Positions 7,662 through 35,317 of a DNA stretch of 45,102 nucleotides are shown in pieces (the first letter of the stretch is position 1; every line of letters starts with the position of its first letter). The translations under genes were made by a program, and so were the position numbers. A model generated the notes under the pieces. That model did not search any database, was not told the DNA's origin, and saw only the letters and a program-made list of their open reading frames with translations. Origin of the DNA: an uncultured bacterium (lineage in GTDB: Bacteria; Desulfobacterota; GWC2-55-46; DRQE01); contig CBDUXY010000001.1 in the NCBI GenBank assembly GCA_965371305.1, forward strand, positions 1 through 45,102. The letters are read 5' to 3'.

Positions 7662-9908
7662 ATGTATCGCAGCAAGTTTGGTTTAACAGCGTTATGCATA
7701 TTTTTGCTTTGCGTTTGCGTGGTCGTTTTCGAGCTTGCCTCTGACGTCGGCGCAACCGGCGGTGCGTTTTACTGGGTAAAACACGGCGGCGGCACAACCG
7801 ACGGCAACACCCCTCACGACGTCGGCAACGGCCCTGGAGTCGACCGTTCCGCTAATCCTGATTACACCACCTATTATAACGAAGGTGAGCCGCTTGAGGG
7901 TGGACGCTACATAGCTGGCGAATGCACCCATTGTCATGAACCTCACGCAAGTTTTGGCACGACCGAGCCCGACCCTAACACAGGCCAGGATCTTGGCCCT
8001 GACGCCTATCTTGCCTTTAAGTCCTATGGTGATACCGATAATTACGCCGAACTCTGCTGGTACTGCCATGAGAATTTTTCTGACATAAACACCTCCGGAA
8101 GTCCTCTTGGGTACGGCCGTTTTGAGTTCTACAAGGGCAAGGCCGTTTTTCAGACTTCAAGCCATTATCTTAGTTCTGACTTCATATGGCCCGAAATATC
8201 CGGAGCGGATATCCATCCGCGCAAAAACAGAGGAAACATGTCTTCCGGCAATGAAGGCAGTTGTCTTAACTGTCACACTCCGCACGGCATCATGGAACCA
8301 ACCGGCGGCACCGAGTACGATAAAACTGCCGTACCTATTGCTCCTACTAACATGCACCTTGCCGTTAATAACGCCTCGGTCAGCGTTGATAACGTAATCC
8401 CTCGTCAGTTGATTGCCTGGGAAGAGGCGCTTTGCGAGAACTGCCACGACGCAAGCGGGCCTGCCATAGATATTCAGAGCGAGATAAATAAGCGTCCAAC
8501 AAGCGGCGGCGGCGGGGGCGGCACCGGTTCGGGCCATCCTGTAGACGATACCGGCTACGCCGGGTTGCACGTTGTGACCGAGGGCGTGCCAATAGGAACG
8601 AAACATGTTGAGTGTTACGACTGTCATAACCCCCATGCCGTAAGTGGACACGGTAGTAGCGGTACGGTCGGTAACGCCGATTTCAACCGTCTTGCCGGCA
8701 TGAAGTACGTTAAGATAGACGGTGCTGTTACGGAGAACGAGACCGAGGGGCGAGAGCCTTACGTGTATGAGCTTTGCCTGCGTTGCCACGGCAATGGTTA
8801 TACGACTTTTATAGAGCCTGACGTTTTTGCAGGTATATATGACGAAGCCGGGCAGCCAAACGCGGCCAACTTACAGCCGCTTCGTACCACGGCGGGAGAC
8901 CCTGCGTCGGCAAACACATGGGGCAGCAACAAAAGGCTTGAATTCGATCCGACAAGCATAGGCACTCAGGCGCTCTGTAACCCTTATATTGTTGAAGCCT
9001 GGTCCGACTGCAGCCCGACAAATTCTGTCTCTAATAATAACTCGGCCTTTCATCCGGTGGTTGAGCGTGGTAGGAACCAGAGTGATGAGATTGAAAGGCA
9101 ACTCACTCCTGCCGGGCTTTCAAGGACCAACTCGATACAGTGTACGGATTGCCACAATAACGACGCGACAAACGTAGCCCAGGGGCCGGTGACGGAGTCA
9201 AACGTCACAAGGGCGGACGATATTGTGCCCCCAAACTGGGTTGGAACCGACCCGGTCGGCCCTCACGCCTCTGACCCTGCAGCCGTAGGAGGCTATAAAA
9301 CTCGCAGGATACTCAGGGCTAACTACAATACAACGCTTGGGATATGGGTGAATCCATGTCCTATTGCTCCCATGAGTGGGCCTAACAACGGTTGCTGGGA
9401 CAAGCCTTTTGCATCTTATGATCCGGACAATTTTGCCCTTTGTTTCCTGTGTCATGATTCAGACGCCTTTGAATGTCAACCCGCGACTAATACAGACTGC
9501 GACGGATCTTGGGATATCTCGACAAATCCCAAGACCAACTTCGCAAGTATATTTGAAAACTCTAACCTGCACGCAGCCCACATAGCCGGCAATGGCGACG
9601 TTACAGGAGGGACGACCACGACCTGTGCCAATTGTCACTATAACGTGCATTCTAATTTAGAAGCTGCCAATACCATGTATGACGACTCCAGTTTTGCAGA
9701 CTGGACAAGGAACAATGACGGTTCGCGCTTGATCAACTTCTCTCCGATAGTACAGCCGACGACCAACTGGGGCACAATCCTTACCAGACCTTTCTGGGGC
9801 TGCGCCATATGGACAAGTGTTCAGAGGAAGGGCTGTGATTTTAACTGCCACGGGTTTGAACAGCAGATTTATTATACTGCCCCGAACGTCGGCACTACCT
9901 GTCCGTAG
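7662..9908 (+). CDS. Secreted multiheme c-type cytochrome (9 CXXCH + 1 CX3CH)
   Basis: GGGAGG lies 4 nt before ATG 7662; the ORF track starts at GTG 7650. Signal peptide present. Heme motifs: CTHCH, CWYCH, CLNCH, CENCH, CYDCH, CLRCH, CTDCH, CFLCH, CANCH, plus CDFNCH. HPV motifs (GHPVDD, FHPVVE) and a G6 linker are present. Confidence 0.85.
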   Translation: MYRSKFGLTALCIFLLCVCVVVFELASDVGATGGAFYWVKHGGGTTDGNTPHDVGNGPGVDRSANPDYTTYYNEGEPLEGGRYIAGECTHCHEPHASFGTTEPDPNTGQDLGPDAYLAFKSYGDTDNYAELCWYCHENFSDINTSGSPLGYGRFEFYKGKAVFQTSSHYLSSDFIWPEISGADIHPRKNRGNMSSGNEGSCLNCHTPHGIMEPTGGTEYDKTAVPIAPTNMHLAVNNASVSVDNVIPRQLIAWEEALCENCHDASGPAIDIQSEINKRPTSGGGGGGTGSGHPVDDTGYAGLHVVTEGVPIGTKHVECYDCHNPHAVSGHGSSGTVGNADFNRLAGMKYVKIDGAVTENETEGREPYVYELCLRCHGNGYTTFIEPDVFAGIYDEAGQPNAANLQPLRTTAGDPASANTWGSNKRLEFDPTSIGTQALCNPYIVEAWSDCSPTNSVSNNNSAFHPVVERGRNQSDEIERQLTPAGLSRTNSIQCTDCHNNDATNVAQGPVTESNVTRADDIVPPNWVGTDPVGPHASDPAAVGGYKTRRILRANYNTTLGIWVNPCPIAPMSGPNNGCWDKPFASYDPDNFALCFLCHDSDAFECQPATNTDCDGSWDISTNPKTNFASIFENSNLHAAHIAGNGDVTGGTTTTCANCHYNVHSNLEAANTMYDDSSFADWTRNNDGSRLINFSPIVQPTTNWGTILTRPFWGCAIWTSVQRKGCDFNCHGFEQQIYYTAPNVGTTCP

Positions 9909-9992
9909 GGTGTTTGTGCGTCCCTGACGCTTGCAAGCGGCGTAAGGTGTTTTTTTTATATGCATAATGTTTTTCAAGAGGGGGTGTGTGAG

Positions 9993-10259
9993 ATGAGAAA
10001 TTTTTTGATTATATTGTGCGCCGTGTTTTTAATGGGTATGGCTACGGTCGAGGCCAAGACCAGACCGGGCGACTTTGACAGGCCGGGTGACACCCCTGCT
10101 GCCGAGCGTAATAATTGCGGCGAGTGCCATGCCAGAAACCGCGGCGGAGCCGCCGGTGTTACCCCCCCTGCAAACCACCGCCGGGGCGCGCTTAAGGACT
10201 GCCTTGGAAACTATATAACAAGGCCGGGACAGTTCCCCTGCACGTCCAACAAGAAGTAG
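9993..10259 (+). CDS. Small secreted monoheme cytochrome c
   Basis: AGAGGGG Shine-Dalgarno sequence about 8 nt before ATG 9993. Signal MRNFLIILCAVFLMGMATVEA. Single CGECH motif. Confidence 0.6.
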   Translation: MRNFLIILCAVFLMGMATVEAKTRPGDFDRPGDTPAAERNNCGECHARNRGGAAGVTPPANHRRGALKDCLGNYITRPGQFPCTSNKK

Positions 10260-10728
10260 AGAAAGCTGTTTTTAATCTTTTCCTGTTCTTACCGGGCCTT
10301 TCTTTCACCTCACTCCCGCCTTTATGTCAGGCGTGAAGACGCCTCTCTATGACTCTTTTACTTTTGTGCGTAATTCTGCCCTGGTTTTCTCCTGTGTTTT
10401 CTCCTGCGTTTTACTTTGGCACGCAAGTTCCCAATTCTGAAAAACCAACGTTAAACAATCGTTATTGCACGTCCCTACCCCCTTTATCGGATAGAAATGT
10501 ATTGAACTTCAGGTGGCAGATATGATATTTTAATAATATTTGTTTTTGTAGGCAGTTTTATACAAAATCGGCGTAAATTCCTGTATGTAAGCTTTTTTGC
10601 GTGTGTAATGATAGTAAAACACTACCTCAAAGCTTTATTACGGAGTATCAGAAGCAATTATGTTGGAAAAACCTCTGAGCCAGGATATGTGGCAATAGAC
10701 TCGCTATGCGGGTTAATGGAGTGTGTGT

Positions 10729-12162
10729 GTGAAAAAGCAAACCGGATTGCTGTGTTTGTTGTTTGCCGTGCTTGTGTTGGTTGCTTCATGTGCCGAGTTT
10801 ATTGATGAATTGCCATCTCGAATTCAGGTCACAGGCGAACCAAGACTTTTGTTTTACATCCATTCCACCTCCAGCTCTCCGGTGGACATAGATTTTACGG
10901 TTATGGAACTGGCGGTAAAGAACTCATCCGGCGTGTGGATTACCGCGCTTGACGAGCCTGTCACCTTACGTTCCGTCTCCCTGTCAAACTCTCAAAGGCT
11001 TCTTGGTGAGGCCTTCGTTCCTGAAGGCCTATACAGCGAGTTAAGGATGACTGTGTCCGCCGCTTCTATAAGAAGCGGCGTTTCCAGGGCAAGTCTGAGT
11101 GTTGCCGACCAAGGTGTGCTTGAACCGAACTCGATTGAACTTAATTTAACAACCGGTCAGTCCACTGTCGTAACTCTTGCCTGGAACCCCAATGAATCGA
11201 TTGAAAAAAGGGTCTTGTTTAATCCTGACATTAAAGTCGATCCTCAGAGGTCTTCTGCAAGGGAGCTGATAATGTTTGTTTCCAACAGTGGCTCTGATTA
11301 CGTCTCCGTGCTTGATATGAGCCTTGAAAGGGTTACTGCCGCCGTGAGTGTTGGTAGTCGCCCTATGGGCATGACGCTTAATGCTACGGGAGATACGCTC
11401 TATGTGGTTAACAGCGCGTCAAGGACCATATCTGTGGTTGACCCCATACACTTCGAGCAAAGAGATTTGATAGACATTGCCGGAGGCATTGAGCCGACCG
11501 ACGTAGTGTTTGTGCCGGACGGGGAGGACTCTATCGAGGGCAAGCTCTATGTTACAAACCGGATGTCAAACGATATAGCCGTTATAAGCACGTATACGAG
11601 AAGGCTTTTAAAGATGCTTCAGGTCGGTCTCGCCCCGTCTCATATTGTTGCAAACCCTGAGAGAAAAGAAGTCTATGTGACAAATGAGTTCTCAAACACA
11701 GTGAGCATAATAAGCACTGTTGATGATACGGTTACCGCGAATCTGCGGGTGAATGGACCTCCTGTAGGGCTTGCCCTTAACAGCGACGACAACATGCTCT
11801 ACGTTTTTATAGAGGCCTCTAACTCGGTAGCTGTACTGTCTACTATAGACAGGGTGCTTGTTGAAACCATAGCGCTTGAGCAGGGACCGGCCAGGGGTGT
11901 CGTTGGGTTCGATAATAGACTTTTTGTAGGCAGTAGTTCTTCAGATACCATGACGTTTTTGACCCGGGATAACGTTATTATCAGAACGATTGATTCGGGC
12001 GCAGACCCTTCCGGGTTCTCCGTGGATGAGATAAGAAATAGACTATATGTGACTAATACCGGAGACGATACCGTCTCTGTCGTGGACCCGCTTGGGCATA
12101 GAATTGTTAAAGACCTGCAGGTGGGCAAGGGCCCTTACGGCATCGTGCAGATGGAAAGATGA
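10729..12162 (+). CDS. Lipoprotein: DUF4382-like N-domain plus YVTN-family beta-propeller
   Basis: GGAG lies 7 nt before GTG 10729 (GTG 10723 is too close to it). Lipobox LVASC. Repeated ~40-aa units (DTLYVVNSASRTISVVD, KLYVTNRMSNDIAVIS, EVYVTNEFSNTVSIIS, MLYVFIEASNSVAVLS, RLYVTNTGDDTVSVVD). Confidence 0.75.
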   Translation: MKKQTGLLCLLFAVLVLVASCAEFIDELPSRIQVTGEPRLLFYIHSTSSSPVDIDFTVMELAVKNSSGVWITALDEPVTLRSVSLSNSQRLLGEAFVPEGLYSELRMTVSAASIRSGVSRASLSVADQGVLEPNSIELNLTTGQSTVVTLAWNPNESIEKRVLFNPDIKVDPQRSSARELIMFVSNSGSDYVSVLDMSLERVTAAVSVGSRPMGMTLNATGDTLYVVNSASRTISVVDPIHFEQRDLIDIAGGIEPTDVVFVPDGEDSIEGKLYVTNRMSNDIAVISTYTRRLLKMLQVGLAPSHIVANPERKEVYVTNEFSNTVSIISTVDDTVTANLRVNGPPVGLALNSDDNMLYVFIEASNSVAVLSTIDRVLVETIALEQGPARGVVGFDNRLFVGSSSSDTMTFLTRDNVIIRTIDSGADPSGFSVDEIRNRLYVTNTGDDTVSVVDPLGHRIVKDLQVGKGPYGIVQMER

Positions 12163-12163
12163 T

Positions 12164-14272
12164 ATGAGATCAAGGCTTATATATACACATATAGCAGTGG
12201 TAGTTTTGTTGGCCCTGCTTGGCGTTTCGCGGCAGGCCTACGCCGAATTAGGTATTGGGGCTAATTTGTCTTATATTCAGACCAAGACGGATGTCGGCGG
12301 GGTAACGAGAGAGACTTCAGATACCAAGCAGAGTTATCACCTTAACCTCGGCCATGACATACCCCTTACACATACTATACATTTTTCAGGTGATCTTGTA
12401 TGGTCGGAGATAGAGACCTCGGGCGGTGAAAAGAGAAGAAGCATATATCCCGTGTTTACCCTTAACTTCTCTCCGCCCAAGATGTACAATATAGGATTCG
12501 GTTATTCCCGTACTGACGTGAACCCCTCCGGCGGGGACCAGATTACCAGCACCAATATGAACGTATCTTTCCTCCATCCACCGTCGCGCAGGATCCCGCA
12601 GTTTTTGATAAGCTACAATGTGTCGACCACGGAGGATCAGGACGCTCCGAAGAGCATAGACAATGTCAATAGGTCTTTAAGCGGTTCGACCCAGTATTCA
12701 ACGCGTATTGCAGATACGTCGCTTTCAGGTAATTATACGGCCAGTTTTTCGCAGTCCGAGGACAAGTTAAATGATATTTCCGGAGAAAGCATATCACACA
12801 GGATCACGCTCAACGCTGCCAGGAGATTCATGAAAAACAAGATATCTACGAGTGCTAACTTCGGCTATACCTTAAGCGACAGCACAAACGAGAGTACAGG
12901 CGGCAAGTCGAGGTTTGAAAGAAGAGAGGTTGCTAATATGGGGCTTGCAATCAACTCGGCCGTCCCTGCCGCCGTTACTCTTGGTGTTGAGGCCGAACTT
13001 ATAGACAACGGGCGCGCCACTGCGGTCACGCCCCTGATAGATATTAATAATGCCGACTGGAACATAGGTCTGGGTTTCGTATCGCCGGAACAGATCCATG
13101 CTATTGATATCTTCGTGAACACCACTTTGGCAGAGGAGACCAATATAAAAAACGGTCTTTATGACTTCGGGTGGGCCCTTTATACAAGCAACGACAATAT
13201 AACCTGGAGCTTTGCCGGAGCCCCGGTGCCTACTTATAATTCGTTTTATAACAGGTTTGAGTTTGATTTTGCCGACATTTCGGCAAGGTACTTCAAACTT
13301 GTTAATACGGCCGGTAACGGAGCAGAGGATATAAACGTTACAGAAATACAGGCCTACGGGTTTTTCCTGAGTAATCCGAAAAAGAGTTTTACTTCTACCT
13401 TGACGAGACAGTTCGGGTGGGGTAATGTGAGTTATTCTCCTACAAAACGAATGAATCTGGGCGCAGTGTTCGGGTTTGACCGCAGTGTCAGGGAGTCTGT
13501 CGCCGCTTCCGAGGCTGAAGACTTATACACCATGTTTAGTTTGAGTATGTCGTATACGGTTATACCAAAGTATTTGAGGATGTCTTCCTCTTATTCGGCA
13601 AACAGGTGGACGTCGGAAAGTGACAGTGAGACATCAAGCGACGTGTATTCTGTTAGTTTTGCCTCGACACCTATGAATGCTATAAACACGAGTCTTAGTT
13701 TCTCTCACGGGGAAAGTGGAATTAACGGTGTAACGCAGACAAAGAGCGATGGTGCAGCCTTGGGGGCTTTTTTAAGGGTATACCCGGGGGTTGATTTTAA
13801 TTTTAGTTCGAGCATGAATCAATCTGAAAACCTTGTGCTTGATTCGGAGTCAAATAGTAGAAGTTTTGCATGGAACATGAAGCTTGTGCCATGGAAAAAG
13901 GTGACGACCGTCTTGAACGGAGGCGTCACCCATACTACTACCAAGGCAAAAGGCACTACAACGTCTTCGTCGTCGCAAAACTTTAGCGTGACGGCCTCTT
14001 ATGCACCGTCCAGGTTCTTTTTTGTGTCTACTTCGCAAAACATTGATCCTACAAGGACTCAGAGCTACGGAGCAACATGGGTGCCAACTTCTAAAATACA
14101 GTTTGGCGTAAGGATGAGCAAGACGGAGACCACGAATGGATACGGAGGGACTATTAGTTGGCAACCGTTTTCGCGCCTGAATTTGCACGGTGGGTATAAT
14201 GCCACTTTAATTGATAACGCCACTAACGATAAAAACGAGTCCGTGTTTGCCCGTGCCTCGATTTCCTTATAA
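12164..14272 (+). CDS. Predicted outer-membrane beta-barrel protein with inserted F5/8 type C (discoidin) domain
   Basis: ATG lies 1 nt after the upstream stop (TGAtATG). Signal ending QAYA. Long stretches of alternating Ser/Thr/Asn-rich beta-strand pattern on both sides of a discoidin-like core (..ARYFKLVNTAGNGAEDINVTEIQAYGF). Confidence 0.6.
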   Translation: MRSRLIYTHIAVVVLLALLGVSRQAYAELGIGANLSYIQTKTDVGGVTRETSDTKQSYHLNLGHDIPLTHTIHFSGDLVWSEIETSGGEKRRSIYPVFTLNFSPPKMYNIGFGYSRTDVNPSGGDQITSTNMNVSFLHPPSRRIPQFLISYNVSTTEDQDAPKSIDNVNRSLSGSTQYSTRIADTSLSGNYTASFSQSEDKLNDISGESISHRITLNAARRFMKNKISTSANFGYTLSDSTNESTGGKSRFERREVANMGLAINSAVPAAVTLGVEAELIDNGRATAVTPLIDINNADWNIGLGFVSPEQIHAIDIFVNTTLAEETNIKNGLYDFGWALYTSNDNITWSFAGAPVPTYNSFYNRFEFDFADISARYFKLVNTAGNGAEDINVTEIQAYGFFLSNPKKSFTSTLTRQFGWGNVSYSPTKRMNLGAVFGFDRSVRESVAASEAEDLYTMFSLSMSYTVIPKYLRMSSSYSANRWTSESDSETSSDVYSVSFASTPMNAINTSLSFSHGESGINGVTQTKSDGAALGAFLRVYPGVDFNFSSSMNQSENLVLDSESNSRSFAWNMKLVPWKKVTTVLNGGVTHTTTKAKGTTTSSSSQNFSVTASYAPSRFFFVSTSQNIDPTRTQSYGATWVPTSKIQFGVRMSKTETTNGYGGTISWQPFSRLNLHGGYNATLIDNATNDKNESVFARASISL

Positions 14273-14444
14273 AACAAGGGGGCTTAACCTTGCGGGGCGC
14301 GTGCGCGTTACAAATTGTATGATGGCTTTTTATGACTGAATGTTTTGCTTTTTTTACTGAGTCTGCCACAGGGTTTGCTCAACGCAGCACTTGTATTATG
14401 TGCTACTTGATAACAGGAAAAGAATTGAAAAAAGGAGCGTAATA

Positions 14445-15050
14445 TTGTATAATTTTAAGTATATGAAGCGCACTTCAGTTACTTCAGTATTATTCTTGTT
14501 AATTGTAGGGTTATGTCTTTTGTCAGGATGTACCGGGCGGGCGGTCAGGTACGTTAACACCGAGGCCGATTTTTCGTACATCAAAAATGTCGCTATCTTG
14601 CCGTTTAATAATCTTACTTCTGATAAGTTTGCAGGGGAGAAGGTGCGTTCGGCAATGATGGTCGATTTATTATCGAGAAATGTCTTTGAAGTAACAGAGC
14701 AGGGCGAGGTAAGTAAGGCCCTGACACAGGTTTTGAGGGCTACAGGCGCAAGTGAAGGTATGGTTGTGGACTTTGATAGGGAGACCATTAAGCTTCTGGG
14801 CGAGCGTCTGGGCGTTCAGGCAATTATAGTTGGAAGCGTTGAGGAGTTTCACGGCTCAAGGGGAGCGTCTGGAGGTGAGGTGACACTTTCCGTAAGGATG
14901 CTCGATACCAGTTCCGGTGTAGTGCTCTGGCAGGTAAGGATAACCGTCCTGGGAGCAAGCGTGGCCAGAAGGATTATAGGTTTTGAGGCCAGGGACAAGA
15001 GTATCTTAACGCAAAAGATTGTAAAACGCGCGCTTGACACACTCCTGTAG
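14445..15050 (+). CDS. CsgG/LpoB/TolB-N-like periplasmic lipoprotein (paralogue 1)
   Basis: AGGAG lies 7 nt before in-frame TTG 14445; the alternative is ATG 14463. Lipobox LLSGC. Motif VAILPFNNLT..(~70 aa)..GVQAIIVGSVEEF is shared with 15175, 17537 and 3737. Confidence 0.7.
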   Translation: MYNFKYMKRTSVTSVLFLLIVGLCLLSGCTGRAVRYVNTEADFSYIKNVAILPFNNLTSDKFAGEKVRSAMMVDLLSRNVFEVTEQGEVSKALTQVLRATGASEGMVVDFDRETIKLLGERLGVQAIIVGSVEEFHGSRGASGGEVTLSVRMLDTSSGVVLWQVRITVLGASVARRIIGFEARDKSILTQKIVKRALDTLL

Positions 15051-15062
15051 ACGCGAGGTGCC

Positions 15063-15145
15063 GGCCAAGGGGGGGCAAGTGGAGTAAAGGTGGGCCAAGG
15101 GGAGTAAAGGTGGAGCCAAGGGGAGCCAAGGTGGGCCAAGGGGAG
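15063..15145 (+). repeat. Imperfect tandem repeat built on GCCAAGGGGAG / GGAGTAAAGGTGG (G-tract-rich, Shine-Dalgarno-like)
   Basis: Four copies of GCCAAGGGG(A/G)G plus one GCCAAGGTGGG variant, and two ~20-bp units GGAGTAAAGGTGGRGCCAAG. The block ends 30 nt before ATG 15175. Confidence 0.7.
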
Positions 15146-15174
15146 TTTTAGAACTTTATCGGGGAATCTTCAAT

Positions 15175-16917: not shown

Positions 16918-16954
16918 TTTAAATGTCAGGTAGACTCTGATTTATCGGTATTGA

Positions 16955-23217: not shown

Positions 23218-23228
23218 AGGCAAAAAAA

Positions 23229-26275: not shown

Positions 26276-26304
26276 TTGACATCATTATTAAAAACTGTTA
26301 ATAT
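26276..26304 (+). promoter_or_regulatory. Candidate strong sigma70 promoter (TTGACA-N17-TAATAT) for OmcS-like gene 1
   Basis: Perfect -35 hexamer with 17-nt spacer in a very AT-rich 530-bp gap. It would give a leader of about 240 nt. Confidence 0.45.
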
Positions 26305-26547: not shown

Positions 26548-27915
26548 ATGAAGAGATTATTGCAAATAACCCTGCTTGTCATGGCAGTTGCCGGGTTTAC
26601 CTTTCTGATGGCAACACCGTCGGAAGCGCTTCACAAGAACCCGAACAACACGCTTGTATGTGGCGGTTGTCACACCATGCACAATAGTCAGGCTAATTTA
26701 TCACTTGGAGGAAGCAATGGTACGGCCAGCAATGGTGGTGCCTTGATACTCTTAAGAGGTAATGTCACAAGCAGATCACAGATTCATAACCTGTGTTTGC
26801 AGTGTCACGGAAGTAACGGTCAGCAGTCAGTGGCTCTCTTCCCTGACGAGTTTGCCGGAGGTGACGAGCACCCGGCTCCAAAGGTATATATAGACGGCCA
26901 GGGTGGAGCAGGTAACGGTTTCGACGGCGCAACGTTCGGCAGCATCGGCGCAGGCGGGGACTTCTCCTCTGAGCTTACCGGTGATAGTGACGGATGGGCT
27001 GCTGATGATACTGACGGTACTGACGTCGGTGTTGGACAGGGACACAGTCTCGGTCTGGTCAACCCGCGTCCTCCTGGATTTGATAACGATGAAGACAGTT
27101 CGGGCGCAACAAGCCTTGACTACTTTACCTGTACGTCATGTCACGACCCGCACGGTGCGTTTAATGGCCCAACTGCACTTGCCAACCAGTTCCGTAACCT
27201 CAGGACCGTACCGACAGGTTCTCTGGAACCTGGAGACATAATACTCAACACCGCTGTCAGGAGTTATGTTGGATACGGCAGTTGTCAGGGTAACGGGGAT
27301 GACTTTGAGACCGGTATAACCAACGGTTCGGATGCAACCGCTATCTGGCCTGTATACAAACTCGGTGAGGCTACACACGTCACTGGAAATGGCTCAAGTG
27401 CATGTGACAGTGCAGGCGGAAACGTTAACTCTTACGGTGTTAGCACCGGCGCTGCAACAGACGGTATAGCCAACTGGTGTGCGGCATGTCACGATTACTG
27501 GCATGAAGGTAACGAGGCCACTAACGGCCCTGTTGCAGCAGGTCCTGGCGCTGACTGGAGAAGGCATCCTGTTGACAGGCTTCTCTATGACGGCAGCAGG
27601 CTTTCAGGCGGAGGTGTCACCATTATAGACGCTGCAAACTACTATGACACTAACCTGGTTTTAGGTGGCGGTAGGTTGCCGATTGCTTCGACTATAGCGC
27701 TTGGTTCAGACCCGATCTACTATATGGAGGTTTCTGGCACAGACGAGTTAACCAGTAAGGTTTTCTGTCTGTCCTGTCACTTCGCTCATGGCGGTCCGAA
27801 CTACGACCTTCTGAGGTGGGATTATCTCTCAGACGTCGATACTGCCACTACGCAGATACAGACAGGCAACGCCATAGCATCTAACGTTGGTTGTCAGCTC
27901 TGTCATAACAGGTAA
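26548..27915 (+). CDS. Secreted hexahaem c-type cytochrome, OmcS-like (candidate nanowire subunit), paralogue 1
   Basis: AAGGAGG lies 6 nt before the ATG. Signal ..ATPSEA. Six CXXCH in OmcS-like order with matching local motifs: CGGCHTMHNS, CLQCHGSNG, GGDF, CTSCHDPHG, CAACHDYWH, RRHPVD, CLSCHFAHGG, and C-terminal CQLCHNR. 455 aa (I recall OmcS as about 430 aa). Confidence 0.75.
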   Translation: MKRLLQITLLVMAVAGFTFLMATPSEALHKNPNNTLVCGGCHTMHNSQANLSLGGSNGTASNGGALILLRGNVTSRSQIHNLCLQCHGSNGQQSVALFPDEFAGGDEHPAPKVYIDGQGGAGNGFDGATFGSIGAGGDFSSELTGDSDGWAADDTDGTDVGVGQGHSLGLVNPRPPGFDNDEDSSGATSLDYFTCTSCHDPHGAFNGPTALANQFRNLRTVPTGSLEPGDIILNTAVRSYVGYGSCQGNGDDFETGITNGSDATAIWPVYKLGEATHVTGNGSSACDSAGGNVNSYGVSTGAATDGIANWCAACHDYWHEGNEATNGPVAAGPGADWRRHPVDRLLYDGSRLSGGGVTIIDAANYYDTNLVLGGGRLPIASTIALGSDPIYYMEVSGTDELTSKVFCLSCHFAHGGPNYDLLRWDYLSDVDTATTQIQTGNAIASNVGCQLCHNR

Positions 27916-27956
27916 TACGAGATAGTATATACATAGCATGTAGGCATAGAGAAAAA

Positions 27957-27986
27957 GGGGAAGGCATTAGCCTTCCCCTTTTTTTT
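27957..27986 (+). terminator. Strong rho-independent terminator
   Basis: 9-bp stem GGGGAAGGC/GCCTTCCCC, ATTA loop, T8 tail, with an A5 run upstream. Confidence 0.9.
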
Positions 27987-28102: not shown

Positions 28103-29788
28103 ATGAAACGTCAAAGAAAATTAAAATTCTTACAGAAAATCTTCCGATACGGATTTCTTTTCATTTTATTTTATCTTTTCTGTGCCTTTACGCCAACTGA
28201 TGCGCGCGGCGTATCAGAGCGGGCAGAGGCGTTTGTTTTTCCTGTCGGGGCAGAGTCTTTTACCAGGCTTGCCTCACTTGAAGATCAAGCCGGTCCATCT
28301 GCTTTTCAAACACCTTTAGACGCGGCAGAGCAGGAAGAAGGCGTAACGGATAAATCCGTTCCCGGGGAAGTAATCACGGATAAGCCAATTCCGGACGAGT
28401 CAGTCCGGGATGAAACGCCGGAGAAACTACCTGAGCAAGCAGAAGACGACAGTTCGTTAATTAACCAGCCGTCGTCTTCATCAACCGGGCCAGGGCCGGG
28501 CATTGACGAAGCACAGGAAGGTGACTCTGTTGAAATAGACGTAAAGGATCCTATAAGTGACAAGTCAAAAGATCCATCTGTTGAGCCTTTCGAGCTCCCA
28601 CCTCCTCCTGAAACCGAGTCGGAAGACAGTTATTACGAAGAAGGTCTTGATGAGGAGATCGGGACAGAAGAAGACCTGATAATTGACGAAGATATAACAG
28701 AGGAGATAATAGAACCTGAGCCTGACGAAGTCATACCGCAGGAGCCTGAAACTCCCAAACCGGAGTTAGAGCCTGCCAGGCAAGATGAGGGTGCGGGCGA
28801 CCCCTCGCCTCCCGTAGACGCTGAGGTAGTTGGCGACGGGGATGTTAAGGGTGGCGAAGCGGCAGAACCTGACGAAGTTGAGCCAGGCGCCGTCGACAGT
28901 GCTGAAACGGAAGAGGACGAGGAGGAGCGAAAAGGGCCGATTGATATCAGGCTTAAATATGTCTTTGGTATTAATGCAAAATTAAGCGGCAAGCAACTTT
29001 CCTGGGTTGACCAGATAGTAATTGACTCGAACAACAATGAAATCTATTTGCTTGATTCCGGCAATAAAAGGATTGTCATAACCGACAGCGAAGGTGGTTA
29101 CCTGTATCATTTTAACTTTGGAATTGCCGGCATAAAGTACCCTCTTGCCATGGACGTTGACACTGCAACCGGCGATATATATATTGCAGAGGGTAAAAGA
29201 ATAGTAGTGCTTGATTACAGAGGGAAGTTCATTAGAAACCTGGAACTCTCCAGGATTCCGAATGTAGAGAAGATAAAGATACAGTCGATGGCTTTGTTGC
29301 GCACTGAAGATGACGAGCTTAACATTTATATAGGCGACGTCCAGTATAAGCGTATTATCGTTATAAGCAGTGATGGCGAACTTGTGCGTGTTTATGAAGA
29401 CAAGTTAAAGGGTGTTGCAGTTAATATAGGGGACCTCTATGTTGATAATGACCGTATTATGTGGCTTGATGTGGCACGTTTTGCCGTCTTTCATCTAAGC
29501 AGCGATGGAAAGGAGTTCAAAGGGTTTGGCAGGGTTTCAAGCCTGTTAGGTGGCTTCAGTATGCCTTCGGATATTGCCGTAGACCTGCAGCGAGAGCGCG
29601 TGATCGTGGTTGATGGAAATAGGATGATGGTCATTATCTTTGACATGGATGGCAACGCTCTGTTTGAATTCGGAGGACCTCTTATATTTAGTTGGCCAAG
29701 GGCGGTTGCAGTGGACGAGTTTGGGCGAATCTATGTGGCTGATAACAGCGGCATTATACGCGTGTTTGAGGTAGTTATTATGGAGTAA
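28103..29788 (+). CDS. NHL-repeat beta-propeller protein with ~230-aa acidic Pro/Glu/Asp-rich linker (NHL-2)
   Basis: N-terminal TM or signal segment (FRYGFLFILFYLFCAFTPTDA). Low-complexity acidic region (..EPEPDEVIPQEPETPKPELEP..). Six NHL blades (IYLLDSGNKRIVITD .. RIYVADNSGIIRVFE). Confidence 0.8.
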   Translation: MKRQRKLKFLQKIFRYGFLFILFYLFCAFTPTDARGVSERAEAFVFPVGAESFTRLASLEDQAGPSAFQTPLDAAEQEEGVTDKSVPGEVITDKPIPDESVRDETPEKLPEQAEDDSSLINQPSSSSTGPGPGIDEAQEGDSVEIDVKDPISDKSKDPSVEPFELPPPPETESEDSYYEEGLDEEIGTEEDLIIDEDITEEIIEPEPDEVIPQEPETPKPELEPARQDEGAGDPSPPVDAEVVGDGDVKGGEAAEPDEVEPGAVDSAETEEDEEERKGPIDIRLKYVFGINAKLSGKQLSWVDQIVIDSNNNEIYLLDSGNKRIVITDSEGGYLYHFNFGIAGIKYPLAMDVDTATGDIYIAEGKRIVVLDYRGKFIRNLELSRIPNVEKIKIQSMALLRTEDDELNIYIGDVQYKRIIVISSDGELVRVYEDKLKGVAVNIGDLYVDNDRIMWLDVARFAVFHLSSDGKEFKGFGRVSSLLGGFSMPSDIAVDLQRERVIVVDGNRMMVIIFDMDGNALFEFGGPLIFSWPRAVAVDEFGRIYVADNSGIIRVFEVVIME

Positions 29789-30110: not shown

Positions 30111-30635
30111 TTGATTCCTATGCTTCTTGCGACAAGAGATTTTTATTCACGTTTTGAACTGGTATTTTTCCTTGTAATATTGCTTGTACTTGTTTTTGCC
30201 GTACATAGGCGAAACGTAGTATGGGCCGACGAGGTTAGTAGTTGGCGAAATGCCAGGCTTGCTTCACCCGGAAAGGTCAGGCCGATCAATAATTATGCCA
30301 ACGCCCTTAGAGACGACGCAGGGGATCCGCGTTCCGCAATAAAGGAGTACAGAGAGGCGATAAGGGTTGCCCCTCTTCAGGTGCCCCCGAGGTCCAATCT
30401 GGCTGTGGCGTATTTAATGCTTGGTATGTATGATGAGGCCGTAATTGAGCTTGAAGTGGCAGTTAGTATGATGCCGGACCATCATGTGCTTCACGGTAAT
30501 CTGGGCTATGCGTATTTGAAAAAACGGAGGTGGAAGATGGCAAAAACCGAGTTCGAGACAGCGCTCAAGCTTAAGCCCGGTTACAGACTTGCCATAGAGA
30601 ATCTAAAGTGGCTTGAGCTTGGTGGGCTTGTTTGA
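30111..30635 (+). CDS. TM-anchored TPR protein (TPR-1)
   Basis: Start is TTG 30111 or ATG 30120. One N-terminal TM helix, then the conserved RRNVVWADEVSSW..SPGKVRPINN motif and TPR repeats. Confidence 0.7.
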   Translation: MIPMLLATRDFYSRFELVFFLVILLVLVFAVHRRNVVWADEVSSWRNARLASPGKVRPINNYANALRDDAGDPRSAIKEYREAIRVAPLQVPPRSNLAVAYLMLGMYDEAVIELEVAVSMMPDHHVLHGNLGYAYLKKRRWKMAKTEFETALKLKPGYRLAIENLKWLELGGLV

Positions 30636-31405
30636 GCGCCCTTGCCACAGATACCGGTACCGGACGTCTTAACGTTCACGCCGTGGAATTTGTGTTCCTT
30701 ATCCTTGCGTTAATTGCCTGTGTTGTTGTCGGTTATATCAGGAACGGGTACTGGGCCGATGAGTTCAGCATCTGGACCGATACGGCCCTTAAATCCCCTG
30801 AAAAGGTAAGACCTCTTAACGAAGTCGGCAGACGTTATATGGACAGAGGCGAGTTCGACCTTGCGCTTGAATACCTGAGTAAAGCTTCTTCGGCAAATTA
30901 TTATTACGCCCCTGCTCACAGTAATAAGGGGGAGATTTATTATCAGCTTGGTCGTTGGAGCAGGGCGCAGGATGAGTTAGAGCTTGCAATCAAGTTCGGA
31001 CCTCCTTACGAGGACCTGCACAGGAGCCTCGGGTTTGCCTATATGAGAACCGGTCAGGTCGGTGCGGCAATAAAAGAATTTAAAAAGGCAGTTTTACTTA
31101 TGCCACGACACGAAAATTTTATAGATTCTGTAAAGCTTGCATATAATAACGAGGGTTTTTTCTATTTCGATAGGCGGGATTTTAAGAGTGCCCTTGTGCT
31201 TCATGAGCTTGCCGCCTCTCTTGACCCAGGGTACGCCAACGCCCGGTACGGCCTTGCCCTTGCTCATGAGGGGCTTGGTACGAATGAAAGGGCGCTTTAT
31301 TACTGGCGTGAATACCTGAGACTTGCGCCGCAGGAGAGCCGTGAGTGGCGTGCCCTTGCCAGGGCCCATATAGAAGAGTTATCGGCTCGCAAGGAGTCGC
31401 AATGA
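30632..31405 (+). CDS. TM-anchored TPR protein (TPR-2)
   Basis: The TTG start overlaps the upstream stop (TTGA). TM helix, then IRNGYWADEFSIW..SPEKVRPLNE and TPR repeats. Confidence 0.7.
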   Translation: MSALATDTGTGRLNVHAVEFVFLILALIACVVVGYIRNGYWADEFSIWTDTALKSPEKVRPLNEVGRRYMDRGEFDLALEYLSKASSANYYYAPAHSNKGEIYYQLGRWSRAQDELELAIKFGPPYEDLHRSLGFAYMRTGQVGAAIKEFKKAVLLMPRHENFIDSVKLAYNNEGFFYFDRRDFKSALVLHELAASLDPGYANARYGLALAHEGLGTNERALYYWREYLRLAPQESREWRALARAHIEELSARKESQ

Positions 31406-32115
31406 ACGTTTCCCTTGCCGCAAGGATAGAAGGGGTTGTGCTTTGCGCAATATGTGTTTGCGTCCTGATTATGTCGTTTGCACGTAACAGGGTTTGGGAG
31501 GAGGAGTTTACCCTGTGGATGGACGTTTCCGTTAAAAATCCGGCCTCTGTCAGGTCTTACAACAACATAGGTTCGGCTCTGATGGATAAGGCGCGTTTTG
31601 CCGAAGCAGTGCCGTATTTAATAAAGGCGGTTGCAGCCGACCCGAGGCGTCAGGTGCCGCACTTCAACCTTGCCCTCTCTTATATGCGAACTGGCAGGGT
31701 CGGGCTTGCCGAAATAGAGCTTTTAAAGACGCTTGAAGTTAGCGACGTATTAAAGAAGGGGCACTACGGTCAGGGGTCACTTTCGCAGACATATGACTTA
31801 AAGTCACACGGTAACCTCGGCAATATATTTACGTTCAAGGGGGAGTTTGAAAAGGCTCTCTATCACTTTGAAAAGGCAATTGCGCTTGCACCGGATAATG
31901 CCTCTCTTCATTACAACCTGGGGCTTGCTTACAAGAAGATGGGGCGTATGGACGAAGCAGCCGCCCGGTTCAGTACCGTGCTCAAGTTGTCTCCTGATGA
32001 CAAGGGGGCTCGCTGGAATTTGATGCAGATTCAGCGCGGTAGAGATTTGGTGGAACCTCAAAAAGGCGGGCGCAGACAACATGGGGTCCGGCAGGGGACA
32101 AACAGGCCGGAATGA
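31402..32115 (+). CDS. TM-anchored TPR protein (TPR-3)
   Basis: AAGGAG lies 5 nt before ATG 31402, with an ATGA overlap on the upstream stop. TM helix, then ARNRVWEEEFTLW..NPASVRSYNN and TPR repeats. Confidence 0.7.
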   Translation: MNVSLAARIEGVVLCAICVCVLIMSFARNRVWEEEFTLWMDVSVKNPASVRSYNNIGSALMDKARFAEAVPYLIKAVAADPRRQVPHFNLALSYMRTGRVGLAEIELLKTLEVSDVLKKGHYGQGSLSQTYDLKSHGNLGNIFTFKGEFEKALYHFEKAIALAPDNASLHYNLGLAYKKMGRMDEAAARFSTVLKLSPDDKGARWNLMQIQRGRDLVEPQKGGRRQHGVRQGTNRPE

Positions 32116-32122
32116 GCAGGAT

Positions 32123-33025
32123 ATGAAATTTTATACATATATGTTTTTAAATGTTTTTTTGGCGGCTTTTTTAGCCATGCCTTCGTTTGCAGCGCCAGAG
32201 GCGGAGTCTTCCTCTCCGTTACCTTCTCTTAGGCCAAGGTACAAGTTCTCCATAACCAGGTTCTACAAGGACGCGTTAAAGAACCCTATCGGGATTTTTA
32301 TGGATAACGCGAACGAAGAGTTTTACGTTGCGGATAGAGACCGTTCTGAGATATTTGTCTTCAACACGGACGGTTCGCCGGTCTTTAGATTTGGCGACAG
32401 AGAGACCCTCTCAGGCATAAACGACCTGGTGGTTCGTGACGACCTTATTTACATCTCGCGCGAGGGCAGGCCCTTTATAGACGTCTTGAACCTGAGAGGA
32501 GTTTTTCAAAGAAGGCTTGATCCCGGTATAGTCGATTTCAAACCCGGTAAGATGGATATTGACGAGGCCGGCAATATTTACGTAGTGAATAAAAAGCTTG
32601 GTAACTGTGTTGTCATAGACAGCAATGAGGAGTTTGTTCTTACGATTGGAGGCGGTCTGAAGTCTCTTTCAGGTGTGAGCGCCGGTGGTGGGTTTGTCTA
32701 TTTCGTGTCCCCGTTTTATGGTAGGATAATACATGTTTTTAACGATCGTGGCGAACATATAATGAACTTTGAGGGGCTTGAAGGGCAAGGTGGCACGCTT
32801 GGCCTGCCTGTCGGAATAAAAGTTGACGGGGCAGGCAATATCTGGATAGCAGACACTATTAAAGGTATTGTCATTTATGATAAAAACGGTAAGAAAACAG
32901 GCAGTTTCGGCTATTCAGGGCCGTTTTATCAAAGGCTCAAATTGCCTGTTGAGATTGACTTGAGCAACTCTGGTATGATATATTTAATAGATAAGGGTAA
33001 TAAACGTATAAGTGTGTTTAAATGA
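32123..33025 (+). CDS. Secreted NHL-repeat six-bladed beta-propeller protein (NHL-3)
   Basis: Signal MKFYTYMFLNVFLAAFLAMPSFA. Six blades (FYVADRDRSEIFVF .. MIYLIDKGNKRISVF). Confidence 0.8.
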   Translation: MKFYTYMFLNVFLAAFLAMPSFAAPEAESSSPLPSLRPRYKFSITRFYKDALKNPIGIFMDNANEEFYVADRDRSEIFVFNTDGSPVFRFGDRETLSGINDLVVRDDLIYISREGRPFIDVLNLRGVFQRRLDPGIVDFKPGKMDIDEAGNIYVVNKKLGNCVVIDSNEEFVLTIGGGLKSLSGVSAGGGFVYFVSPFYGRIIHVFNDRGEHIMNFEGLEGQGGTLGLPVGIKVDGAGNIWIADTIKGIVIYDKNGKKTGSFGYSGPFYQRLKLPVEIDLSNSGMIYLIDKGNKRISVFK

Positions 33026-33061: not shown

Positions 33062-34402
33062 ATGGGGGAAAATTTTAATGAATTACTCCGTAGCTTGCTA
33101 CAGGGTATCAAAAGGAAATATGATCCTAAAAACCCCGCAACAAGCTACGCGAAATTAACCCCGCCATCTGGGATTAAAAACATGAATTACTGCGTGCGCG
33201 TCCTTGGTGGTTGTTTTTTTCTAATTATTTTTTTATTTTTTTCCTCTTTCATCACCAATGCCGGTGAATACCACGCGACAAGTGAAGAGACCTATTCGGG
33301 CACGGAGACCCTTGCCTGCTCACAGTGCCATACCATGCACGGCTCTCAGGGAGGCACTGACTCTCTTTTTTATGTCGGAGGCGGGCCGAATCTTAAACTC
33401 TTGAGGGCTTCATCCATACTTAACCTGTGTCTTTTCTGTCACGGTGACACCAACCCGGGTCCTGTTGAGTGGGATAGCAGAACTCCGCCTCAGATAGTAG
33501 ATAACAAGCAGGGACCTGCTGCGGCAAGTTACGTGCCTTCCGGTGGGGACTTTATGGATAGAACCGTTGTAAATGAGGCCAACCGCCACAGCTTGGATAA
33601 AGACGTTTCGGCCGCAATCGATGAGCCGCCCGGATACAACGGCACATGGAGCGACGTTGTCACCCGTTACAGTCCTAAATTTAACTGCCTTTACTGTCAT
33701 GACCAGCACGGCAACAGTAATTTCAGGAATCTCAGGTACGACCCCGGAACTCCTGAAAACGATAATCGTAACGACCCTGACCGTGTTGTGATTACTTTTG
33801 CGTACGACCCGGTGTCCGACCCCGACGACAATACCAAGGACGTTAATTACTGGGGCCCTGGGGCGGACACGCCGGTTGGTAACAAATTTACAAGAACGAA
33901 CGTCAGGTTTCGCAGGGCGCCGCTTGATACAGATTTGCCCGTAAGGGGCATATCGGCTTTTTGCGGTAAGTGCCATATGGATTTTTGGGGCGAGAGCGGG
34001 GATGCAAACGTCGGTGGTTCTATTTCGGGTGGACTCGGTGCCGGGGATGACAATTCCGCCTCAGACAGTCCCTGGGTAAGACACCCTGTTGACGATATAA
34101 GTATCGGGCTTGCAAATTCAAACCTCCACGCAGACCTTTCAAACTGGAGCGGTATCGCCGCAACCGCCAAGGCCCGCCACATAGACCCGACAGACACGGG
34201 TGATTTCGGCGAGGACCAGCCTTTTTGCCTCTCCTGTCATTACGCCCACGGCGGCGGCAACCCGAACTTCGCGGGAGTCTCTGAGTACGACCACAGTAAC
34301 CTTGCCATGAAGGACAGCACGGGATTGGTGAATATAGATCCTTCTTATGATACCGCAAGCGGCAGGATTAGAAACGTCTGTCAGCAGTGCCATAACCAGT
34401 AA
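33062..34402 (+). CDS. Hexahaem c-type cytochrome, OmcS-like, paralogue 2
   Basis: GAGGT lies 5 nt before ATG 33062. The alternative ATG 33182 (MNYCVRVLGG..) would remove a 40-aa N-terminal extension. Motifs: CSQCHTMHGS, CLFCHGD, GGDF, CLYCHDQHG, CGKCHMDFW, VRHPVD, CLSCHYAHGG, and C-terminal CQQCHNQ. Confidence 0.75.
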   Translation: MGENFNELLRSLLQGIKRKYDPKNPATSYAKLTPPSGIKNMNYCVRVLGGCFFLIIFLFFSSFITNAGEYHATSEETYSGTETLACSQCHTMHGSQGGTDSLFYVGGGPNLKLLRASSILNLCLFCHGDTNPGPVEWDSRTPPQIVDNKQGPAAASYVPSGGDFMDRTVVNEANRHSLDKDVSAAIDEPPGYNGTWSDVVTRYSPKFNCLYCHDQHGNSNFRNLRYDPGTPENDNRNDPDRVVITFAYDPVSDPDDNTKDVNYWGPGADTPVGNKFTRTNVRFRRAPLDTDLPVRGISAFCGKCHMDFWGESGDANVGGSISGGLGAGDDNSASDSPWVRHPVDDISIGLANSNLHADLSNWSGIAATAKARHIDPTDTGDFGEDQPFCLSCHYAHGGGNPNFAGVSEYDHSNLAMKDSTGLVNIDPSYDTASGRIRNVCQQCHNQ

Positions 34403-34471
34403 CCACCTTCTCTAAAGGCTTGGAATCCCTGCCAGAGCAAAATATTTTTTAGTGAGGTAAGACTATAAATC

Positions 34472-35317
34472 ATGAGAGTTCTTTTATTTATTAAAACAGC
34501 GCTTCAGGGCGTTTTGTTCGTTTTGCTGATTGTTTCGGTATCCACTGCATTTGCCGCAGCCGACCATTTGCACGGCAAGGGGCATGAAGGCTTAGCGGTT
34601 TCACAACACAGGGCACAGGACGGAGCAGGGCAAGCGAGAAGCGTCGCCAGGGCAAAGGCAGAGTTAAAAAGGCTCGAACTTGTCTATAAACAGGGCGGAG
34701 GCACGTGGCAGGACTTAAACAGGCTTGGTGTCCTCTACCTTCATGAGAGAAACTATACCGAGTCGATTAAAATGCTGCGTCAGGCAACGTTAAGAAAGCC
34801 AGGGCATCAGAAAGCACACGAATCGCTCGGCATGGCCTATTTTAGAAACGGTGAGTTTGACATGGCAGCCAAATCCTGGGGCAGGGCAAGTGAGATTGCG
34901 CCGCAAGTAGCTTATTTAAAGATGCTTGTCAAGACTGCTCGGGAAAAATCTGGGCTTTTAAAAGAGGCAGAGAAACTTAAAAATGATCTGAAAAAACCAG
35001 GTGCGCCTTTTGAAAAACGCCGTGATCTTGCAATCCTTTACGCCCGTACCGGTAGGCTTGACCTGGCAACTTTTGAGCTTTTAAAGGCAATAGAAAAGAA
35101 CCCCGAGGTGGCCGGACTGCACGATATCCTTGCACGTATTTATGCAAGGATAGGGGATTACAAGAGGGCCGTCGCCACTGAGAAGATCGCAGTGAAACTT
35201 AGTCCGGATAACGAGACCTTCAGAAAAACCCTTGCCGAGATGGAAAACCTCTCCAGCGCCATTGCAAAGGGTGAGTTTCACGATAGAGGTGGTTCGGAAG
35301 AAAAGCCTTCAGAATAA
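34472..35317 (+). CDS. Secreted TPR protein (TPR-4)
   Basis: Signal ..VSTAFA, followed by TPR repeats (YLHERNYTESIKMLRQA.., ARIYARIGDYKRAV..). Confidence 0.7.
   Translation: MRVLLFIKTALQGVLFVLLIVSVSTAFAAADHLHGKGHEGLAVSQHRAQDGAGQARSVARAKAELKRLELVYKQGGGTWQDLNRLGVLYLHERNYTESIKMLRQATLRKPGHQKAHESLGMAYFRNGEFDMAAKSWGRASEIAPQVAYLKMLVKTAREKSGLLKEAEKLKNDLKKPGAPFEKRRDLAILYARTGRLDLATFELLKAIEKNPEVAGLHDILARIYARIGDYKRAVATEKIAVKLSPDNETFRKTLAEMENLSSAIAKGEFHDRGGSEEKPSE

Follow-up and report, generated by a model that had tools for sequence, protein, structure and literature searches.

The closest described counterpart of the gene cluster treated here is the OmcS/osc locus of Geobacter sulfurreducens (GSU2492-GSU2505). 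According to PMC13194489, omcS, omcT and oscC are members of the osc operon, GSU2501 is oscC, GSU2495 is oscI and GSU2494 is oscJ; in summarising Shen et al. 2025 (Cell Chem Biol 32:239), the same paper gives as proposed roles folding for OscH, secretion for OscE, OscF and OscG, and morphology for OscD. The present analysis concerns a stretch of 45,102 nucleotides from an uncultured bacterium of the Desulfobacterota (GenBank assembly GCA_965371305.1, contig CBDUXY010000001.1, positions 1 to 45,102), here called the window, in which positions 7662-35317 encode an extended series of multihaem cytochromes and envelope proteins. The preferred reading, to which a probability of about 0.8 is assigned, is that this cluster represents a divergent and rearranged OmcS/osc-type system for extracellular cytochrome filaments. 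It draws on homology, gene order, the conservation of haem ligands, and export signals.

Comparison with described systems

With OmcS/osc the window has in common a hexahaem subunit with six haem-binding motifs and six distal histidines, including the inter-subunit histidine. The accessory genes likewise share an order, running from a YVTN propeller through a barrel with a CBM32-like insert, LpoB-like lipoproteins, a SurA/PpiC protein, a 26-haem and a ~15-haem cytochrome to an NHL propeller, and in both systems a TPR-NHL module lies directly upstream of a subunit gene. The window differs in that its subunits, only ~25% identical to the described ones, fall into a clade of their own, the biogenesis block precedes the subunit genes rather than following them, the gene in the OscG position is split and includes Ig-like domains, and the subunits belong to two families, hex1 and hex2, which have separate NHL partners. 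Further additions are a decahaem together with a monohaem protein, a c7-like lipoprotein and a REC-HD-GYP regulator.

The OmcZ and OmcE nanowires are likewise extracellular multihaem polymers (as is proposed for the window), but their octahaem and tetrahaem subunit families, respectively, are unrelated to hex1 and hex2. OmcZ requires a dedicated prolyl isomerase (bioRxiv 10.64898/2026.07.18.739370) and its system includes the protease OzpA beside the isomerase, whereas the window has no subtilisin-like maturation protease. Homologues of OmcE occur, for example, in Desulfuromonas soudanensis (bioRxiv 10.1101/2025.10.22.684050). The only link from the window to this group is that the decahaem profile has a weak, local match in 9yuq, a PDB chain of 218 aa titled 'Putative multiheme cytochrome c', which at E=0.009 is not significant. 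In MtrCAB and the Geobacter Pcc and Ext conduits, an outer-membrane barrel again stands beside periplasmic and lipoprotein multihaem cytochromes, but no homology of the window's barrel to MtrB/OmbB-type porins was detected (there is no Pfam or PDB match except for the CBM32 insert), and these conduits are without counterparts of the window's peptidyl-prolyl isomerase (PPIase), LpoB-like lipoproteins and propellers. The small lipoproteins of the window match CsgG, GNA1162 and LpoB weakly, at or below the family thresholds. These matches suggest a periplasm-facing alpha/beta module at an outer-membrane channel. In contrast to curli-type systems, the window has no CsgE or CsgF partners and has a separate barrel of 700 aa.

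Between 7662 and 35317 there are 21 open reading frames (ORFs), all on the + strand, if one of 99 aa encoding a monohaem protein is included; the original prediction, made from the DNA letters, had listed 20 consecutive genes and was right about their co-orientation. Haem-binding motifs occur in seven ORFs and sum to 66 CXXCH, as had been counted, plus one CX3CH and one CX4CH in place of the two CX3CH then reported. ORF, motif and Pfam/NCBIfam scans agree with the rest of that inventory (seven cytochromes, propellers, lipoproteins, a SurA/PpiC protein, four TPR proteins and a REC-HD-GYP regulator), and the five gene junctions described as translationally coupled all read as given: TGAtATG at 12160, ATGGTAA at 18103, TAATG at 24177, TTGA at 30632 and ATGA at 31402. 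The translated products of the region all carry a signal peptide or a lipobox. To call the system complete was an overstatement, as neither Ccm haem-attachment genes nor an inner-membrane quinol oxidase are found within the window.

Hexahaem cytochromes of the OmcS family

The candidate filament subunit hex1 (26548-27915, +) and the second hexahaem protein hex2 (33062-34402, probable start at 33182, +) each contain six CXXCH motifs. A search of 5.8 billion proteins returned 249 relatives of hex1, nearly all of them unnamed and from metagenomes labelled Deltaproteobacteria, Thermodesulfobacteriota, Nitrospinota or hydrothermal vent. An exhaustive phmmer search with hex1 of 1.84 billion representatives of 50%-identity clusters gave 255 matches at E<=1e-3, 81 at E<=1e-10 and 50 at E<=1e-30. 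When compared with the PDB, a hex1-family profile built from 32 sequences matched OmcS (6EF8/6NEF) with E=1.7e-19 over residues 8-362, the next match being at E=0.025, while a hex2 profile built from six orthologues had OmcS (6EF8) as its sole match (E=2.8e-6). The similarity to OmcS that the original prediction expected of both hexahaems is therefore found, both in these profile searches and in the conservation of the ligands.

The ligands were compared in an alignment of 145 sequences, comprising OmcS, 111 hexahaems from true OmcS loci and 34 sequences of the window type. CXXCH motifs 1-5 of the window-type proteins correspond column for column to those of OmcS; motif 6 aligns with 99% of the canonical homologues, and lies beyond the OmcS fragment used. 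Six histidines outside the motifs are kept at >=0.99 in the canonical proteins (the N-terminal His, His16, His110, His147, His257 and His335), and their counterparts in the window family (H29, H45, H166, H202, H340 and H414 in hex1 numbering) are each conserved at >=0.9. For His16, His147, His257, His335 and the N-terminal His, the columns are 0.99-1.00 conserved in both groups. H29 of hex1 falls in the N-terminal His column and H45, within CHTMH, is the equivalent of OmcS His16; the sixth distal histidine (H166) belongs to a shared GH[SN][LI] motif that is shifted by an alignment gap. Four histidines of hex2 (H93, H216, H341 and H396) align with canonical distal-His columns, and hex2 has also kept CHTMH and GEYH. 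In OmcS, His16 of the invariant CHTMH ligates haem 5 of the adjacent subunit, holding the polymer together; the assignment of each histidine to its haem follows the OmcS structure.

A neighbour-joining tree places the window-type proteins in a clade of their own, apart from all hexahaems of canonical loci, with a mean identity of 25% between the two groups as against 56% among the canonical proteins. Judged by profiles and ligand columns, the membership of hex1 and hex2 in the OmcS family holds.

Biogenesis genes shared with canonical osc loci

The sequence of OmcS, as obtained from the PDB alignment, was used to scan 185,579 species genomes of GTDB, and this yielded 78 canonical loci, in which the match is 50-67% identical to OmcS. 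They include at most 10 kb of flank on each side, and many are incomplete. The loci come from Geomonas, Citrifermentans, Geomobilimonas, Anaeromyxobacter, Nitrospirota, Desulfobulbaceae, Rokubacteria and others; individual loci, both canonical and others, are cited below by L numbers. Their order by tblastn is (TPR)-NHL-OmcS-(paralogues)-YVTN-barrel-lipA-lipIg-lipC-PPIase-c26-c15-(NHL), and the block at 10723-24179 in the window is colinear with the genes that lie downstream of the true OmcS genes. This nine-gene order is found again in dozens of genomes from several phyla. The accessory genes had been predicted to be osc-like, and the presence of the same order beside true OmcS genes in the 78 loci supports this.

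The block opens with a beta-propeller lipoprotein of the YVTN/YncE type (10723-12162, +; Pfam and NCBIfam matches, lipobox LVASC), which has a DUF4382-like N-domain and occupies the OscD position. It is present in 61 of the 78 canonical loci, directly downstream of the OmcS genes. Its gene is coupled by the TGAtATG overlap to that of a putative outer-membrane barrel of ~700 aa (12164-14272, +), which has a signal peptide and a central CBM32/discoidin-like insert and stands in the OscE position. The barrel itself has no Pfam match even at E<=1. A profile of 21 homologues matches CBM32 (discoidin fold, 2jd9) with E=3.5e-4, this segment is kept in the canonical proteins, and the last residue is F or Y in 33 of 61 homologues, a feature of outer-membrane barrels. 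By tblastn the barrel is seen in 39/78 loci, by profile hidden Markov model (HMM) in 60/78, and by HMM in all 52 loci where both neighbours are visible. The original prediction could not place either the YVTN lipoprotein or the discoidin-bearing barrel in the described cluster and counted them as extras; by their conserved position and the retained insert, both are core osc parts.

The next gene, lipA (14391-15050, probable start at 14463, +), encodes a small LpoB-like lipoprotein (lipobox LLSGC) in the OscF position, although its Pfam match to LpoB (E=2.6e-4) is below the Pfam cut-off. A promoter-like site at 14425-14453 (TTGAAA, 17 nt, TATAAT; 11/12 matches) ends ~10 nt before the probable ATG at 14463, and suggests an internal promoter or a near-leaderless transcript for this gene. 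It is followed by lipIg (15175-16887, +), an exported protein with Pfam matches to Ig-like domains, and by lipC (17537-18109, +), a CsgG/GNA1162-like lipoprotein by Pfam (lipobox FVGGC). These hold the first and second part of the OscG position. The N-domain of lipIg matches residues 99-243 of a two-domain protein of Geomobilimonas (L067, 15640-16824) with E=5e-16, and is followed by ~320 aa of Ig-like domains, while lipC matches the second domain of the same protein (residues 220-369, E=8e-20; both by BLASTP). Since each half matches one domain of the canonical protein, the gene in the OscG position is here split into two, with Ig-like domains added to the first half. lipA, lipIg and lipC are represented in 53, 54 and 54 of the 78 loci, respectively. 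A terminator-like hairpin (16893-16913) comes after lipIg, and the 650-bp gap between the split halves contains about seven tandem copies of the 19-nt unit TGAAGAGATCTGGGCCGGA (16956-17088). At the corresponding gap, L003, L085 and L088 have an ORF of 179-182 aa with transmembrane and HAMP-like features, of which no trace is left in the window.

The chaperone gene (18103-19686, +) encodes a SurA_N plus PpiC-type PPIase by Pfam, and is the OscH equivalent. The protein is 37% identical to its counterparts in L001 and L003 and 31-37% in L085, L086 and L088, and its gene has the same position as in the canonical loci, where it is detected in 28/78. Two giant cytochromes follow, each seen in 32/78 loci. 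The 26-haem lipoprotein c26 (19703-21655, +) is the OscI equivalent; its ORF opens at 19640, a GTG preceded by a Shine-Dalgarno (SD) sequence stands at 19703, and its 26 CXXCH form 13 paired-CXXCH units by Pfam. It is 36-39% identical over its full length to proteins of canonical loci (E around 1e-130 in that small database). The OscJ equivalent c15 (21889-23217, +) has 15 CXXCH and one CX4CH, with a best E of 1e-61 in the same comparison. An NHL propeller (23193-24179, probable start at 23229, +; Pfam) in the OscK position ends the block, and an NHL gene also follows the 15-haem gene in canonical loci L062, L072 and L101.

In Geobacteraceae and Geomobilimonas, the subunit genes are followed by a YVTN lipoprotein, a barrel of 745-767 aa, a lipoprotein of ~200 aa, a two-domain protein of ~400 aa, a PPIase and a 26-haem cytochrome. 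This gene count and order fits the D to I lettering exactly. Compared by way of these other genomes, the gene order of the window agrees with the GSU2492-GSU2508 layout named in the original prediction.

A second shared element surrounds hex2. Three membrane-anchored TPR proteins (30111-30635, 30632-31405 and 31402-32115, all +; Pfam), with overlapping stop and start codons, precede an NHL propeller (32081-33025, +; Pfam) that lies directly upstream of hex2. In the 40/78 canonical loci that have an NHL gene of this type, the OmcS gene invariably follows it directly, and homologues of the TPR proteins precede NHL-OmcS in Geomonas, Citrifermentans and Nitrospirota loci. The second subunit with its NHL and TPR genes had likewise been taken for an addition; on this synteny it is the canonical TPR-NHL-OmcS module.

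Genes and layout specific to the window-type clade

From the chaperone onwards, the order in the window is PPIase-c26-c15-NHL-c7-like-REC-HD-GYP-hex1-NHL-(TPRs)-NHL-hex2-TPR. It is seen again, at 31-76% protein identity, in L003, L085, L086 and L095, and is rearranged in L001/L082; overall, the window-type order occurs in at least five independent metagenomic contigs. The NHL partner of hex1 (28103-29788, +; Pfam), which has a long acidic, Pro-rich N-terminal linker, follows the hex1 orthologues in L003, L082, L085, L086, L087 and L095, and the exported TPR protein after hex2 (34472-35317, +; Pfam), the last of the cluster, is kept in L003, L082, L085, L086 and L095.

The gene for a c7-like trihaem lipoprotein (24179-24868, +; 3 CXXCH) is coupled to the NHL gene at 23193 by TAATG. 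Homologues occur in L003, L085, L086, L095, L090 and L092, and also in three canonical loci of the Desulfobulbaceae type. A more distant variant of the locus is seen in L090, L092 and L097 (~8.1-9.9 kb), which have three tandem c7-like genes before the hex1 homologue and YVTN-barrel-lipoprotein genes after the subunit genes.

The regulator gene (24982-26016, +) encodes a receiver domain (Response_reg, E=5e-31) and an HD_5 domain (E=3e-35) by Pfam, with the motifs HDIGK and HHEKYDGTGYP, and so is classed as an RpfG-type REC-HD-GYP protein with the predicted activity of a cyclic di-GMP (c-di-GMP) phosphodiesterase. Full-length orthologues of 66-76% identity adjoin hex1 in L003, L082, L085, L086 and L095. 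The HD-GYP part is absent from all 78 canonical loci, where only the receiver domain is matched, in unrelated response regulators.

The cluster begins with a secreted decahaem protein (7662-9908, +; 9 CXXCH and 1 CX3CH), an accessory whose ORF opens at 7650 and whose ATG at 7662 is preceded by an SD sequence. Its family comprises 245 matches, unnamed metagenomic proteins of ~700 aa each, in which the nine CXXCH and the CX3CH (CDFNCH) are invariant. Against the PDB, the profile identifies no solved relative, the best match being local only, and the protein is found in 0/78 canonical loci. In L082, L084, L088 and L089, however, its homologues have osc-like or hexahaem genes as neighbours, and in L083 the neighbour is an NHL gene. 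The idea that it might be an elongated OmcS was rejected, as hhalign gives only a 49-column, N-terminal two-haem likeness (probability 95%) and there is no PDB relative. The small exported monohaem protein that follows (9960-10259, +; 1 CXXCH) has no Pfam match, but an 87-aa ORF after the closest decahaem homologue, in L083, is homologous to it (E=1e-5). That decahaem homologue (53% identity) is upstream of a giant ORF of >4,700 aa with multihaem, laminin-G and NHL modules (16098-22061 for this region of L083), and also adjoins type II/IV secretion-pilus genes.

The original prediction named the ten-haem cytochrome and the HD-GYP regulator among the candidates for new parts, and their absence from the canonical loci agrees with this. 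As far as comparison of the loci goes, the true additions are limited to accessories specific to the lineage, namely the decahaem and monohaem proteins, the c7-like lipoprotein, the REC-HD-GYP regulator and the extra hex1-NHL pair. For the decahaem and monohaem pair, a role as an extracellular or periplasmic partner peculiar to the lineage is proposed.

Expression signals around hex1

hex1 is preceded by an AT-rich spacer of 532 bp. A sigma-70-type promoter (26276-26304, +; TTGACA, 17 nt, TAATAT, with TG extension) is located ~245 nt upstream of the gene, which has a strong SD sequence (AAGGAGG), and a strong intrinsic terminator (27949-27986, +; 17-bp stem and T run) lies directly 3' of it. 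Seven other loci show the pattern TTGACA-N17-TAnnnT at 205-285 nt ahead of their hex1 orthologues. A conserved promoter of its own, a strong SD sequence and a strong terminator are what one would expect of a structural subunit made in abundance.

A c-di-GMP or cGAMP riboswitch upstream of hex1 was also considered, and is rejected for the known families, as an Rfam scan of the window and the hex1 leader returned no riboswitch. In three other loci, the hex1 leaders (L082 ~1790-1960, L086 ~9790-9950 and L094 ~9800-9900) contain two hairpins with UGAUGR-type loops, the second of which overlaps with a strong terminator ending in a U tail (z = -3.2 to -4.1), an antitermination-like arrangement; this structure is not evident in the hex1 leader of the window (z = -1.07). 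In L087, a gene for a REC-ANTAR regulator (8752-9372) adjoins the hex1 homologue.

Alternative interpretations

A number of observations weigh against the reading of the cluster as an OmcS/osc-type filament system. The relationship of the hexahaems to OmcS is remote: pairwise similarity is only 25-29%, with identities of 27-29% in the alignment, and single-sequence phmmer searches of the PDB with hex1 and hex2 do not find OmcS, which is detected by profiles only. An AlphaFold2 model of hex1 from the 32-sequence alignment reached a mean predicted local distance difference test score (pLDDT) of 54 and a predicted template modelling score of 0.53. Haem-free models of multihaem proteins are unreliable, and this low-confidence model, for which Foldseek found 0 matches in the PDB, is uninformative about the fold. 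Family membership in itself does not prove filament formation, because the Geobacter paralogues OmcT, OscC and OmcJ are not known to polymerise; filaments of hex1 and hex2 are a prediction. In the comparison of loci, G. sulfurreducens is not among the 78, so that other Geobacterales serve as proxies, the Osc letters given to window genes (D to K) follow position and gene count in those relatives, and the E-values of tblastn apply to a small database of loci. For 12164-14272, the barrel fold is putative (a single-sequence AlphaFold2 model has a pLDDT of 29.5).

Much of the data could also be accommodated by a trans-outer-membrane porin-cytochrome conduit, in which the barrel would house c26 and c15, and the hexahaem and decahaem proteins would be monomeric redox partners at the surface or in the periplasm. 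The barrel does adjoin lipoprotein multihaem cytochromes, as in Pcc/Ext/Mtr clusters, the 26-haem protein matches decahaem repeat models of the DmsE/GSU2203 type, and several OmcS paralogues are not known to form filaments. Against this, neither hexahaem family varies at the inter-subunit histidine, a constancy difficult to account for in obligate monomers, a CBM32-like insert is not known in Pcc porins, and the barrel, lipoproteins and PPIase are positionally orthologous to genes that PMC13194489 connects with OmcS secretion and folding. A conduit is considered improbable, although it and a nanowire are not mutually exclusive. Rather less remote, but still unlikely, is an electron-uptake system that would use the same hardware for Fe(II) or mineral oxidation, or for uptake between species, instead of an outward, metal-reducing nanowire. 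One close homologue and one further family member carry the label hydrothermal vent metagenome, and in Desulfovibrio ferrophilus a link has been drawn between electron uptake and NHL-associated clusters of outer-membrane cytochromes (PMC5815863). However, the window contains no pointer to the direction of flow, Pfam/NCBIfam scans of its proteins reveal no Cyc2-type or other iron-oxidation marker, and uptake would alter the physiology rather than the identity of the machinery. Both conduit and uptake are compatible with much of the data, but they explain the invariant inter-subunit histidine and the orthology to secretion and folding genes less well than does the OmcS/osc-type filament system. 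The idea that common envelope genes are juxtaposed by chance, with no functional unity, can hardly be entertained. NHL, TPR and multihaem genes are indeed common in these lineages and co-orientation runs well past the cluster, but the nine-gene order recurs in dozens of genomes of several phyla, a synteny that already contradicts chance, the window-type order persists in at least five independent contigs at only 35-55% protein identity, and stop and start codons overlap at five junctions.

Genomic setting and flanking genes

The + strand run takes in every sizeable ORF of the window from 7354 to 43196. The %G+C is 0.46-0.50 (as a fraction) inside the cluster compared with ~0.50 outside, and the downstream flank, with genes for HU, an epimerase and an HD/OB protein, is syntenic in the relative L003 (GCA_024278765.1). 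Given the similar composition and the syntenic flank, 7662-35317 is regarded as a stable chromosomal locus rather than a compositionally distinct island, as it had originally been called.

Four consecutive genes for ankyrin-repeat proteins of 591, 229, 400 and 345 aa, exported or lipoproteins, are found at 38324-43196. This array had been suggested to belong to the cytochrome system, but is absent from the otherwise colinear L003, and on present evidence the suggestion is rejected. Upstream of the cluster lies the ORF of an exported protein of 587 aa (3737-5500). On visual inspection its N-terminal part is similar to the LpoB-like lipoprotein domains encoded in the cluster, and a low-complexity linker of acidic and basic residues and FG-GAP-like repeats come next. 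This protein too is rejected as part of the system on present evidence. A tRNA gene (5521-5593) comes immediately after this ORF.

Proposed mechanism and significance

The route of secretion, the polymerisation and the regulation outlined here are put forward as a model. The subunits would be exported by Sec and have their haems attached by machinery encoded outside the window, and the PPIase chaperone would fold the haem-loaded proteins. These may then cross the outer membrane through the assembly of barrel and lipoproteins and polymerise by ligation between histidine and haem across subunits, with propeller and TPR proteins shaping or scaffolding the fibre. The giant periplasmic cytochromes and the c7-like lipoprotein would feed electrons to the base of the fibre or drain them from it. 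Through the REC-HD-GYP protein, expression or assembly is probably linked to c-di-GMP and phosphorelay signals.

A further proposal, made tentatively and with doubt prevailing, is that hex1 and hex2 represent a second, unnamed branch of OmcS-like nanowire subunits, with a conserved control and accessory layer of its own that is absent from Geobacter-type loci. The branch would belong mainly to uncultivated bacteria labelled Deltaproteobacteria, Thermodesulfobacteriota or Nitrospinota, with a few members from hydrothermal vent metagenomes. Its layer might consist of the REC-HD-GYP gene adjoining a subunit gene whose leader is long, the c7-like lipoprotein, and the decahaem and monohaem proteins, possibly as a dedicated filament partner (a cap, an anchor or a second polymer), and in some relatives of the leader with twin hairpins and terminator, with an adjacent REC-ANTAR gene in one.

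On homology and synteny, the cluster is the known and reportedly widespread OmcS/osc system carried into uncultivated bacteria, and not a new kind of machinery. The OmcS/osc machinery is thereby extended to a large set of unnamed proteins from such bacteria, of which those of the hex1 family cannot be matched to OmcS by ordinary pairwise searches. The comparison also clarifies which osc parts are universal (the propeller, the barrel with its CBM32-like insert, the lipoproteins, the PPIase, the giant cytochromes and the NHL protein) and which are specific to the lineage (the HD-GYP regulator, the c7-like lipoprotein and the decahaem protein), and it provides leads on the regulation of nanowire production by c-di-GMP and on possible partners of the fibre.

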